A stretch of 45,722 nucleotides of DNA from the NCBI GenBank assembly GCA_041302875.1, contig JBFYQI010000002.1:1-45722 (forward strand). Reading direction: 5' to 3'. Under the pieces are notes generated by a model, which saw only the letters and a list, made by a program, of their open reading frames with translations, searched no databases and had not been told where the DNA came from. Made by a program: the position numbers and the translations under genes. Numbering within the stretch: position 1 is the first letter of the stretch; the number at the start of each line of letters is the position of its first letter. Shown here one piece after another: positions 22,230-32,160 of this stretch. This stretch comes from Ignavibacteria bacterium. GTDB lineage: Bacteria; Bacteroidota; Ignavibacteria; UBA10030.

Positions 22230-23354
22230 TCAGGCGATTTCTTTGCGGTAGCACCGTCTTCGCTTGTGCTGGCGATGGTCGTAGTAGCGCCATTGCGCCT
22301 GAACCTTGGCATTCTCCTCCAATTCCCTATTCGTCTCCACCTTGTCCACTCCCCTGCGGACGAATGTCTTGTGCATTTCGTGGATAAGGATGGCGTTGAT
22401 CCCTTTATTCTGCGCCTCCGGACGAACCGCCGTCAGATAGAGATCGGCGTTCCGCTCATACTTCATTGCCCACAAGACATGAAGGAAGCCGAACGGGAAC
22501 AAGCGGCCCTTGTTCTTCTGGAACGCGTGGGAGAGCGACGGCATTGCGATGCCAAAGGCTACGACGTGGTTCGATTCGTCCAGCACGACCGGAACGAAGT
22601 CAGGAAGGATGTAGCCGAAGTACTGCTCCACGTATTTATCGATCTGTTTGTCGGACAACTCGACAAATCCGTACAATTCCCTGAATCCGTCGTTCAACAC
22701 CTGGAAGATCTCGCGGGCATACGGCAGCAGGTCTTTCCGCTTACGCGCTTGCAGGACGTGGAGGCGATTTCGCTGCAATGCGATCTCCGAAAGCCGTGAG
22801 ATCTTTTCCGGGATCTCCTTCTTCATCGTGACCTGGAATTCGACCCAGTCCGCATCCTTCACATATCCTGCCCGCTCGATGTGTTCCCCGTAGTACGGGA
22901 AGTTGTAGATCGCACCCAATGTGCTCACTTCCTCAAATCCCTCGACCAGCGTTCCCTCTCCGTCAAGATCGGTGAATCCCAGCGGTCCATGGAGGCTCGT
23001 CATCCCGCGAGATCGCGCCCATTCTTCGACTGTACGGAGCAAGAGAGTTGACACACCGGCATCATCGATAAAATCGAACCAGCCGAAGCGGGCAGCCTTT
23101 GCATGCCATCGCTCGTTGTAGCGATTGTTGATGATGCCGGCGATGCGCCCGACGATTCGGCGTCCATCAAGAGCGAGCCAATACTTCGCTTCGCAGAATT
23201 CGAACGCGGGATTCTTGTCTTCGCGCAAACCGTCGAGTTCGTCGCGCCGCGGAGGGGGAACCCAATACCGGTTGTCCCGGAACAGGTCGTACTGGAACGC
23301 GACAAACCGCCGAAGATCATGAAGGGTGCGGACTTCGACGATGGTTGGATTCAT
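22230..23354 (-). CDS. GNAT-superfamily N-acyltransferase-like protein (374 aa)
   Basis: Trimmed to ATG at 23354 (MNPTIVEVRTLHDLRRFVAFQYDLFRDNRYWVPPP). The C-terminal half has an acetyl-CoA-binding-like segment (YLTAVRPEAQNKGINAILIHEM). It starts 5 nt after the upstream stop. Confidence 0.6.
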   Translation of the reverse strand: MNPTIVEVRTLHDLRRFVAFQYDLFRDNRYWVPPPRRDELDGLREDKNPAFEFCEAKYWLALDGRRIVGRIAGIINNRYNERWHAKAARFGWFDFIDDAGVSTLLLRTVEEWARSRGMTSLHGPLGFTDLDGEGTLVEGFEEVSTLGAIYNFPYYGEHIERAGYVKDADWVEFQVTMKKEIPEKISRLSEIALQRNRLHVLQARKRKDLLPYAREIFQVLNDGFRELYGFVELSDKQIDKYVEQYFGYILPDFVPVVLDESNHVVAFGIAMPSLSHAFQKNKGRLFPFGFLHVLWAMKYERNADLYLTAVRPEAQNKGINAILIHEMHKTFVRRGVDKVETNRELEENAKVQAQWRYYDHRQHKRRRCYRKEIA

Positions 23355-23359
23355 GGCTG

Positions 23360-25057
23360 CTAGAGACGCTGGGTTAATGTGAGATAAGCGGTCCGTTCCG
23401 TAAAGTGCCCGTAGAGCATCGACGGCGATGAGTACCGGGTCCACAACACCGCGGCATTCACAGAAAAACTCTGAGTCACCGACCAGGTCGACGACAGCCG
23501 GAATCGAAGCGAGTTCGCCTGCTGATTGTCGAACGACCACATGACGGAGGCGCGTGATGTCAATGCGTTCGCCAACGTCCGGTGCTGCGCCGTCAACATC
23601 GTGGACCAGTTCGTGGTCTTGCGGTCGATGGAAGCGCTCATGTTGACCGACGGGAGCAACAGGATGTCTTCGGTTGCTGCGATGGTCCCACCGACTCCGA
23701 CCGCGTGGTTGACCGCGCGAACATCCGGTCTCACAGGGAGGTCATACAGCGAACCCGAATAGGTGTAGTCGAAATTCACGGATCGGAGCGTCGACTGCCG
23801 GCTGAAGGAGTACTGCTGGCTCGTCCCGATCACTACCGTGGAAAACCCGTACCGCGCGGAATCGCCGGGGGCGTTGTTGTCCATCGACGAGTAGACGACG
23901 CGGAACGACGTCCCCCATTCACCGACCGGCCGCAGGGTGACCATCGCCGTGGCGGTCTGCCGCACCGTCGTGTTCCTCTTCTGTCCCAACAGATTGTCGT
24001 TCTGACGGGTCCAGCTGACCATGATCGTCCCTGTGGGGATGCGGACCATCGGGGAGATGAGGAATTCCTGCTGATCGTTCGTCAGCCAGCCCACACCGAG
24101 CGATGTATATCCCGGCGCAATGTACTTGTACCCGGTTCGCAGACTCACCGGCGAGAAGCTGAGCATCATGTCGCTGGCGACCATGAAGTCTGCGTTCGAG
24201 CTGAGGCGCGGCTTGAAGATCCCCCGCACGAATTCCGGCACGCTCCCCGTGGTGTCCTCCTCAAGCCGCATGTCGCGCGTGTAGAGGCTTCCGTTCGCCT
24301 CGACATTCCATGTGACGGCACGGTCGAACAGGACCGTCCGCGTTCGGATGCCGGCAACAAGGTTCTCCTGCGGCGTCGTCGCATACGGATTCTGGTATGT
24401 CATATCGAGGGAATCGTTCTCGAACGCGGACACGGAAGGATTCGGATCAGCGAGTGAGGCAGGATCATCGCGCACGCGAAGTACCTGCACATCAAAGAAT
24501 GACGCATATTCGTCCCCGACGCCGATGCTTGCTCCCATCACATACCGTTTGTAGGAGCCGCTTTCCGACCCGCCGTATACGGCCCGGCGTGCTTGTCCTC
24601 CCAACAGACTGAACCGAAGAAGTCCCGGATTGATGATCACGCCGCCGCCGCGCAACGGGATCCCGCTGAGTGTGTACGGAGAGATCTCATCGCTGAAATC
24701 GCCGATATGCGCCCGTCCCCATCGCCACGAGGGATGGAGGCCGATCTGATTGATGTCCTGGCGCGCAGAGTTCCCTTCGGTCGACAAGAGGAGATCCGCG
24801 CTGAGTGTGACCGCATCGAAGACCGTGAGCGTGGGACGAAAGAACAACCTCGCCGTCGACGGATCACGCCGCCGGGGGGCTCCGGTGATCCCGTTCACCT
24901 CTCCATACGCCGTCAATTCGCCCGAGAATCTGAATGCCTCATCAAGAAATCCCGATGCACGACCGCTGGAGTCGGGTGCTTGGGCGATCGCCCGTTCGTG
25001 TGCCCACGCGAGCAAGAAGATGCACGTGCAGACGAGGAATCGTCCGTTGGTAGTCAT
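23360..25057 (-). CDS. outer-membrane beta-barrel protein (565 aa), family unknown
   Basis: Signal peptide MTTNGRFLVCTCIFLLAWAHERAIAQ. The whole protein has an alternating beta-strand pattern rich in Y/R/S/T. Confidence 0.55.
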   Translation of the reverse strand: MTTNGRFLVCTCIFLLAWAHERAIAQAPDSSGRASGFLDEAFRFSGELTAYGEVNGITGAPRRRDPSTARLFFRPTLTVFDAVTLSADLLLSTEGNSARQDINQIGLHPSWRWGRAHIGDFSDEISPYTLSGIPLRGGGVIINPGLLRFSLLGGQARRAVYGGSESGSYKRYVMGASIGVGDEYASFFDVQVLRVRDDPASLADPNPSVSAFENDSLDMTYQNPYATTPQENLVAGIRTRTVLFDRAVTWNVEANGSLYTRDMRLEEDTTGSVPEFVRGIFKPRLSSNADFMVASDMMLSFSPVSLRTGYKYIAPGYTSLGVGWLTNDQQEFLISPMVRIPTGTIMVSWTRQNDNLLGQKRNTTVRQTATAMVTLRPVGEWGTSFRVVYSSMDNNAPGDSARYGFSTVVIGTSQQYSFSRQSTLRSVNFDYTYSGSLYDLPVRPDVRAVNHAVGVGGTIAATEDILLLPSVNMSASIDRKTTNWSTMLTAQHRTLANALTSRASVMWSFDNQQANSLRFRLSSTWSVTQSFSVNAAVLWTRYSSPSMLYGHFTERTAYLTLTQRL

Positions 25058-31992: not shown

Positions 31993-32131
31993 CGAGAGCC
32001 TCCAGACGGTGCCGATGACGATCTCAGAAAAGGCGAAGGGCCTCCCTCGAACGCGCGTTGCGCTCCAAGGAGGCCCTCGTCTCTCCAATTCAACTTCACC
32101 AGCATCCCCGGAAGAAGGAGGTCTGACTTTT

Positions 32132-32160
32132 ATTATAGATAAAGTCCGTTCGAGACGCAA
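32132..32160 (-). promoter_or_regulatory. candidate sigma-70-type promoter for the giant-protein operon
   Basis: The minus strand reads TTGCGT-N17-TATAAT (perfect -10). It predicts a ~130-nt 5' UTR. Confidence 0.35.

Follow-up and report, generated by a model that had tools for sequence, protein, structure and literature searches.

The window examined here, a stretch of 45,722 nucleotides from contig JBFYQI010000002.1 of an Ignavibacteria bacterium, carries on its minus strand three adjoining genes, for a giant secreted protein, for a protein built of fibronectin type III (FN3) domains and for an outer-membrane (OM) beta-barrel. Judged by their recurrence side by side in many genomes, the three are a dedicated, conserved unit. 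From the anatomy of the proteins and from synteny we favour, at somewhat better than even chances, the view that the barrel is an OM export or anchoring module dedicated to giants that share a conserved N-terminal 'head'. A fourth gene, for an acetyltransferase of the GNAT (Gcn5-related N-acetyltransferase) type, follows the barrel gene in the window. The genes, and the parts of the giant, which include immunoglobulin (Ig)-like modules, are as follows; ORF stands for open reading frame and AF2 for AlphaFold2.

31992..27238, minus strand: giant protein gene, 1584 aa from its ATG (ORF and 113 homologues)
27241..25085, minus strand: FN3 protein gene, 718 aa (Pfam fn3)
25057..23360, minus strand: barrel gene, 565 aa (AF2 model)
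23354..22230, minus strand: tandem-GNAT acetyltransferase gene, 374 aa (Pfam Acetyltransf_1)
31153..31911, minus strand: conserved N-terminal head 'gN', giant residues ~28-280
30313..31152, minus strand: two further Ig-like modules, then a linker, giant residues ~281-560, which align lengthwise with relatives
27241..30195, minus strand: 'giantC' all-beta domain, giant residues 600-1584

Synteny and distribution of the triad

Barrel loci were taken from genomes of many families of the phylum (20 loci) and from a scan of species-representative genomes with an 11-row barrel alignment (72 loci), and all ORFs of the loci were searched with profiles for the barrel, the FN3 partner, the head and giantC. 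The four first look-ups already showed giant, FN3 protein and barrel together, between unrelated flanks, in two gene orders (giant-FN3-barrel and barrel-giant-FN3) and with no GNAT. In 23 of 24 genome loci we see the triad, or as much of it as the fetched DNA can hold, and the profile search recovered the full triad in 48 of 98 loci. Barrel and FN3 partner were detected in 23 of the 98; in 17 of these 23, the head was not seen because an ORF of at least 1000 aa, directly upstream, runs past the edge of the fetched DNA. Barrel and head were detected in 14, where about half of the giants exceed 3000 aa and leave the fetched DNA, and several of the other loci of this kind are short contigs or contig ends. 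The barrel stands by itself in 12 loci, most of them on contigs shorter than 7.5 kb, and about two of these look like true orphans.

The carriers are labelled Ignavibacteriota, Bacteroidota, Chlorobiota, Balneolaceae, Zixibacteria, Kryptoniota, Gemmatimonadota and Calditrichaceae. They span several phyla of the Fibrobacteres-Chlorobi-Bacteroidetes (FCB) superphylum, and almost all are uncultured metagenome-assembled genomes (MAGs). The first-pass annotation of the window had proposed a dedicated module of barrel, giant passenger and partner, with the acyltransferase as the fourth gene of a cassette. The module itself stands, the triad being syntenic in the 48 fully resolved loci and matching no described adhesin, usher, Omp85, TpsB or type IX secretion system (T9SS) family; the role in export or assembly, which fits the anatomy, is what we infer. 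As for the cassette, three of its genes are conserved across FCB phyla and the fourth, the GNAT gene, is syntenic in one near-identical MAG only.

Since the head starts every barrel-linked giant and giantC occurs in only 15 barrel loci, we place the functional link, as far as gene content tells, between the barrel and the N-terminal head, not between the barrel and the entire giant. The phylogeny of the barrels bears on how the cassette is inherited. When 86 barrels are placed in a maximum-likelihood tree, those with the same type of giant next door cluster together, and the grouping does not follow taxonomy. Seven barrels, the window's among them, make up a supported clade; six of the seven accompany giantC giants of ~1500 aa in the order giant-FN3-barrel. 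The barrels of giants longer than 3000 aa form a clade of their own. Because the tree follows giant type and not taxonomy, the triad behaves like an exchangeable accessory module, the genes of which are apparently inherited together. Another genome of the same genus (G245, locus L021) carries a different type of cassette, with the barrel first, then a 2395-aa giant and last the FN3 protein, and its barrel belongs to another major clade. This difference from the window's type leads us to conclude that cassettes are gained, lost or exchanged within a genus, as read from the two loci.

Two variant arrangements were met. In the Melioribacter-type MAG loci L057 and L058, a giantC giant, an FN3 protein and a barrel are followed by a second giant, of 1825 aa, and a further FN3 protein; as the barrel is thus flanked by two giant and FN3 pairs, one barrel may serve two cargos. 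In Chitinophaga dinghuensis (L111, QLMA01000001.1, 2389-18253), a cultured species, the parts lie on separate genes in one block, in the order barrel (586 aa), head with FN3 (759 aa), two proteins of unassigned function (920 and 212 aa), giantC protein (1489 aa), FN3 partner (699 aa) and an SprB-repeat protein.

A conserved head on variable giants

The head occupies ~280 aa at the extreme N-terminus of every barrel-linked giant, be it of 1400, 2000 or more than 3000 residues. Of 97 barrel loci, 62 have a barrel-linked giant with the head, whatever follows it in the protein. In an alignment of 34 heads, a signal peptide ending A-Q comes first, then a TANFOR-like subdomain with an RLPEGxYxxC motif, and third an Ig/FN3-like subdomain (PxFxWTPV ... 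YAWxVxA) with weak matches to DUF928 (E 0.0016-0.014), fn3 and Ig. In 33 of the 34, the last residue of the signal peptide is small, mostly A, and the next is Q (31909-31914 in the window). Under the 'Q-rule' of Bacteroidetes, a mature N-terminal glutamine leads to pyroglutamate formation, and the mature N-terminus of the heads would likewise be a glutamine.

One source labels relatives of the giant 'TANFOR domain-containing'. Their sole NCBIfam match is TIGR02542, over residues ~30-170, at 17-39 bits against a cut-off of 67, and the window's own head gives no match to that model at E<=0.1. Over 301 genomes of the phylum, TIGR02542 produced just six matches, all of them sub-threshold, and TANFOR proper was dropped as a family label. 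Because the relatives fall far under the cut-off and the window copy has no match, the head is in our judgement a distant, sub-threshold relative: TANFOR-like, not TANFOR. Searches of PDB sequences with the head profile and with single proteins returned nothing past generic FN3/Ig.

A word-index search with the head brought up head-bearing relatives (P0243-P0245) with deaminase, PT-HINT and WHH nuclease families at their C-termini. On one metagenome contig (L112, Ga0208492_1000006, 1996-22478), two head-bearing giants end in PT-HINT and in an XOO_2897-type deaminase, and each is followed by small ORFs, possibly immunity genes. An FN3 partner and an SprB-repeat protein with a T9SS tail lie upstream of them; the contig begins too near to show any barrel.

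The barrel

A 49-sequence alignment yielded a confident AF2 model of the barrel (pLDDT 84.3, pTM 0.71), in which the signal peptide leads straight into 26 long antiparallel strands; both a plug and a periplasmic domain are absent. No Pfam or NCBIfam match was found when the barrel and 48 relatives were scanned one by one, and none among PDB sequences, in agreement with the initial description of the third protein as a barrel of no recognised family. Whether it resembles Omp85/TpsB or ushers had also been asked. There is no family match to either, and ushers appear only among generic fold matches: Foldseek returned large barrels only, led by the 26-strand MtrB (6r2q_B, TMq 0.54, E 3.7e-10), with FimD/PapC ushers and TonB receptors as runners-up and FimD aligning over its barrel part only (TMq 0.32-0.47).

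The family is a large one. A profile search found 3124 members among 1.84 billion cluster representatives, 1242 of them at 1e-30, and within the phylum 79 of 301 genomes have a match at 1e-10, weak matches counted, some with four or five copies. A literature search turned up neither the barrel family nor giantC nor the triad, and we consider the barrel family to be undescribed.

The FN3 partner

The FN3 protein consists of a signal peptide and a chain of six to seven FN3-like domains (PF00041 in the 718-aa protein: 59.6 bits against a cut-off of 25; 3.6e-16), and its conservation is even over the whole length. Homologues of ~650-760 aa adjoin the barrel or the giant in 71 of 97 barrel loci, and one further locus is cut off upstream of its FN3 gene; by this count the FN3 protein is the universal partner in the triad.

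A rod of this kind raises the question of whether the triad could be a static envelope scaffold or tether, in which the barrel anchors a periplasmic giant and the FN3 rod, as a brace between OM and periplasm or as part of a gliding or surface-layer apparatus. Six to seven domains are long enough to span the periplasm, the triad proteins bear no known surface-exposure signal, and in Bacteroidia the module adjoins SprB-repeat proteins of the gliding type. However, the bodies of the giants are highly variable, and some have nuclease or deaminase toxin ends and immunity-like genes, which would be senseless for a periplasmic brace. Cassette types also differ within one genus, as in accessory systems and not as in core envelope parts, and the distribution is patchy (the 79 of 301 genomes given above, weak matches included). 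We therefore regard a scaffold as unlikely.

The giant protein and its giantC domain

In the window's giant, a signal-peptide-like N-terminus (MNPRRLFLPLFLVCIMSLALPTYSLA/QG, ending SLA/QG) is followed by the conserved head, by two more Ig-like modules with repeated W...V.A motifs, read from the translation, and by a 985-aa all-beta C-terminal domain. The giant has no Pfam match over threshold, no NCBIfam family and no PDB sequence relative. The first-pass annotation had taken the first two products for large, secreted proteins with Ig/FN3 repeats, which describes the FN3 protein well and the giant up to residue ~560; residues 600-1584 are instead a separate, conserved all-beta domain.

This domain, giantC, comprises ~985 aa, is rich in glycine (13%) and is all-beta with long beta-hairpins. 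Its AF2 model (pLDDT 82.5) is likewise all beta. Homologues at 25-81% identity include stand-alone secreted forms of ~945 aa. The cysteine pair C1476/C1582 is kept in 35 of 36 sequences, and we describe giantC as 'disulfide-stapled' through this putative bond. No family match was obtained in Pfam, NCBIfam or the PDB, and Foldseek found nothing among the viral models of BFVD. Against the PDB, Foldseek gave only LptD, ApoB100 and porins at TM-scores of 0.17-0.2, in which we see a local beta-meander likeness only; such matches would allow a membrane- or lipid-contacting role only weakly.

The same matches suggest a different reading of the locus, that giantC is a membrane- or lipid-handling beta structure akin to LptD, AsmA or the ApoB beta-belt and forms, together with the 26-strand barrel, a bridge for lipid or for lipopolysaccharide (LPS)-type molecules. 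Full-length LptD (E 1.6e-8) and the ApoB100 beta-belt are the best PDB matches of the giantC model, the barrel is 26-stranded like LptD, and the glycine content and long hairpins would suit such a structure. We think this very improbable: at the TM-scores just given the likeness is local, most barrels pair with giants that have no giantC (present in only the 15 barrel loci), and neither barrel nor giantC has an LptD/OstA Pfam signal. Relatives moreover have extensions of ~500 aa after giantC, hence it carries no terminal barrel signal.

A sister system beside CHASE2 cyclases

In many families, the barrel profile also weakly matches one ORF of 800-950 aa per genome, the C-terminal ~500 aa of which are a distant paralog of the window's barrel without Pfam or NCBIfam family. 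LptD was considered for these ORFs and rejected, as they have no LptD signal; they are a CHASE2-linked paralog instead, located at most 2.5 kb from a CHASE2 adenylate/guanylate cyclase (~740 aa) in at least 33 of ~36 genomes of the phylum. Just upstream, two of four re-fetched cyclase loci of other genomes (L114 and L116) encode a small secreted protein, of 375-460 aa, made up of the head alone; in L115 no head was detected beside the cyclase and long barrel, and a comparable small ORF is lacking in L118. The window's own genome has the sister system on contig C115 (L113: 2-2494 and 2618-4843), which begins at the barrel. Head-only protein and long barrel are, by their adjacency, a second and independent head-barrel pairing, which strengthens the view that head and barrel proteins act on each other, and which hints that the same pair can serve signalling.

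By analogy, the barrel could be a trans-envelope sensing or uptake channel with the head-bearing protein as its ligand-binding partner. The frequency of the cyclase neighbour and the head-only protein speak for this, as does NsrA of Sinorhizobium, an OM barrel needed for activation of a CHASE2 cyclase (PMC13001267). Yet the window's cassette and its 90-odd relatives have no conserved cyclase, kinase or regulator as a neighbour, and their partners, of 1500 to more than 3000 aa and some of them toxin-ended, are unlike a receptor; signalling may be a derived use of an export/display pair. Sensing as the function of the window's barrel thus appears decidedly unlikely to us.

Gene layout and the GNAT gene

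The layout given initially, four minus-strand genes with an ATGA overlap and gaps of 27 and 5 nt, is exact. Read from the sequence, the end of the giant gene (TGC AGA TTA TGA) overlaps the start of the FN3 gene (ATG AAG) in ATGA at 27241-27238, 27 nt separate the FN3 stop from the barrel ATG, and 5 nt (cagcc) separate the barrel stop from the GNAT ATG. Long plus-strand ORFs within the giant gene are shadows of a gene of 59% GC, and homologues exist only for the minus-strand products (at least 160 in databases for the barrel, 113 for the giant). Giant, FN3 protein and barrel all have Sec-type signal peptides, and the GNAT has none. The absence of a T9SS tail from all four products, remarked on at the outset, was borne out for the C-terminal sorting domains PF18962, TIGR04183 and TIGR04131 at E<=0.1 in Pfam and NCBIfam; the adjacent gene, next downstream of the four (20943-22142), bears such a tail (1.9e-7).

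Identification of the fourth product as GNAT-like was correct: PF00583 (Acetyltransf_1) matches in two stretches, with 36 bits where the cut-off is 20.7, and no closer family or solved relative was found. Here the gene is probably co-transcribed with the triad. In one scheme the four genes form a single operon, and the GNAT would serve the system either by acylating the giant cargo or by making a small molecule that the system needs. The short gap, the common strand and the lack of a terminator-like site between barrel and GNAT are in keeping with this, as is the same arrangement in L039, a MAG of the same species, 99% identical to the window. But L039 is the only other place where the GNAT follows the barrel: no other cassette examined has it, among them the 24 other genome loci, even where genus, family or order is shared with the window. 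Of 61 genomes of the class, 60 have a member of the GNAT family, whether or not they carry a triad; it sits at unrelated places, and orthologues (57-69% identity) are on separate contigs or at a distance of hundreds of kb from any barrel. A protein without signal peptide is also an odd partner for a cargo that is exported. Membership of the GNAT in the system, as the first-pass annotation had it, was accordingly rejected, and the operon scheme is in our eyes scarcely credible; from its distribution, the GNAT is a class-wide neighbour gene outside the conserved module, and in annotation it should not be read as part of the triad system.

Paralogs of the tandem GNAT lie inside open frames of 800-870 aa in several genomes of the class (G337, G319, G330, G302, G326, G311 and others), from which we conclude that, by the extent of these frames, the module also exists fused to another domain.

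Two features lie upstream of the giant gene. In its leader, 42-57 nt 5' of the start, a terminator scan flagged a GC-rich hairpin (CGAGGGAGGCCCTTCG) followed by a T-rich tail (32034-32049, minus strand), which could be an attenuator or a stability element. Just upstream of the promoter region, an ORF of 119 codons (32281-32640, minus strand) adjoins an MscS-type channel gene (32654-33796, plus strand); by eye it resembles the middle of an amidohydrolase (…GIKLYPGYEPFYPSDPKLEPVYALARTHGVPIMFHSGDT…) and then ends, and it may be a gene remnant.

Proposed function

In the export or anchoring model that we favour, the three proteins would cross the inner membrane by Sec, after which the barrel would act as OM conduit, as anchor, or as both, for the giant. 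It would recognise or hold the conserved head, in the way a two-partner secretion (TPS) domain engages TpsB or the N-terminal retention module of a giant adhesin sits in its pore. The 24-strand usher pore passes folded Ig-like pilins, and strings of Ig/FN3-sized domains could similarly pass through, or sit in, a wide barrel lumen. Within the complex, the FN3 rod would be an adaptor, a plug or a stalk. As payload there would be the variable body of the giant: in the window giantC, exposed on the cell surface or past it, and in some relatives a body with nuclease or deaminase toxin domains at its end. In favour of the model we count the synteny of the triad, the tie of barrel to head, the anatomy of the barrel, the head-bearing relatives with toxin ends, which match the published TANFOR class, the second head-barrel pairing beside CHASE2 cyclases and the exclusion of the GNAT.

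Several points weigh against this model. Conserved adjacency shows that function is shared, not which function it is, and the fold matches of the modelled barrel are generic and point to no particular mechanism. The giant has no toxin or adhesin domain recognisable in Pfam or NCBIfam, and its head, as said, is missed by TIGR02542. In Bacteroidia the module accompanies SprB-type T9SS cargo, and given these neighbours there may be some T9SS dependence.

A broader proposal is that barrel, FN3 rod and TANFOR-like head make up an unrecognised pathway of protein export and display in the FCB superphylum, a new type of secretion system that carries polymorphic giants, the published TANFOR toxins among them, and a sister branch of which was re-used for signals to CHASE2 cyclases. 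We hold this to be possible, with the balance tilted against it.

The routes by which proteins are exported across the OM are few and intensively studied, and for Bacteroidota and their relatives little is known outside T9SS. An unannotated barrel family of this size, locked to giant polymorphic proteins via a shared head, would, if the model is true, be a candidate exit route for toxins of the TANFOR class and for giant surface proteins related to them, and the architecture of its barrel would be new beside those of Omp85, usher, Slam, SprA and LptD.

Comparison with known systems

Type IX cargo differs in its C-terminal sorting domain, which none of the four proteins has. LptD-LptE resembles the triad in that LptD is a 26-strand barrel filled by a partner, and LptD is the top, though weak, fold match of giantC. 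However, there is no LptD/OstA signal and no beta-jellyroll, the barrel model starting right after the signal peptide, and the triad cassette is accessory and patchy, not essential and universal.

Chaperone-usher pili (FimD/PapC) share a wide barrel, and the usher passes folded Ig-like domains serially, as could be the case for Ig/FN3 strings. The window's barrel differs from an usher in its strand number, 26 instead of 24, and in lacking a Pfam signal of the usher family, a plug and periplasmic domains at either terminus; a PapD-like chaperone is likewise missing, no usher or chaperone family match having been found at the locus. MtrB of MtrCAB (6r2q_B) is also a 26-strand sheath without plug that holds a threaded partner protein. 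There is, however, no sequence relation, no CxxCH haem motif in giant, FN3 protein or barrel, and no cytochrome gene nearby.

With NsrA-CyaD1/D2/K of Sinorhizobium meliloti the likeness is one of arrangement and concerns the sister branch, which adjoins CHASE2 cyclases in most genomes having that branch, whereas the window's cassette has no cyclase.

Two-partner secretion (TpsA-TpsB, CdiA-CdiB; type Vb) likewise places a dedicated OM barrel gene beside a giant Sec-exported cargo, the N-terminus of which is conserved and the far end variable and sometimes toxic. The differences are that the barrel lacks an Omp85/POTRA signal and any periplasmic domain and has 26 strands, not 16, that the giant has no TPS/haemagglutination domain, and that a third, FN3 partner is obligatory.

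By the relation of the heads, distant as it is, the closest published entity is the class of TANFOR toxins of Bacteroidetes (Jana, Salomon and Bosis 2020, PMC7073777), the neighbourhoods of which are enriched in Fn3 and SprB; their export route was left as unknown, with T9SS as a guess, and a barrel is never mentioned in that paper (0 occurrences). The two kinds of protein are alike in being large and exported by Sec, in joining a conserved N-terminal domain to bodies that vary, and in having Fn3 proteins and SprB/T9SS cargo nearby; in the window's giant, too, a signal peptide directly precedes the head within a large protein. This giant differs in having neither toxin domain nor immunity gene, the next gene being the FN3 partner, although its relatives P0243-P0245 do carry toxin domains; and the 67-bit cut-off of the TANFOR domain itself (TIGR02542) is reached neither by the window's giant nor by its relatives. 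What the window adds is a giantC-type cassette in the order giant-FN3-barrel, an incidental GNAT, a barrel tree that follows cargo type and a sister branch linked to CHASE2, and the exit route that PMC7073777 left open is the one for which this cassette would offer a candidate.

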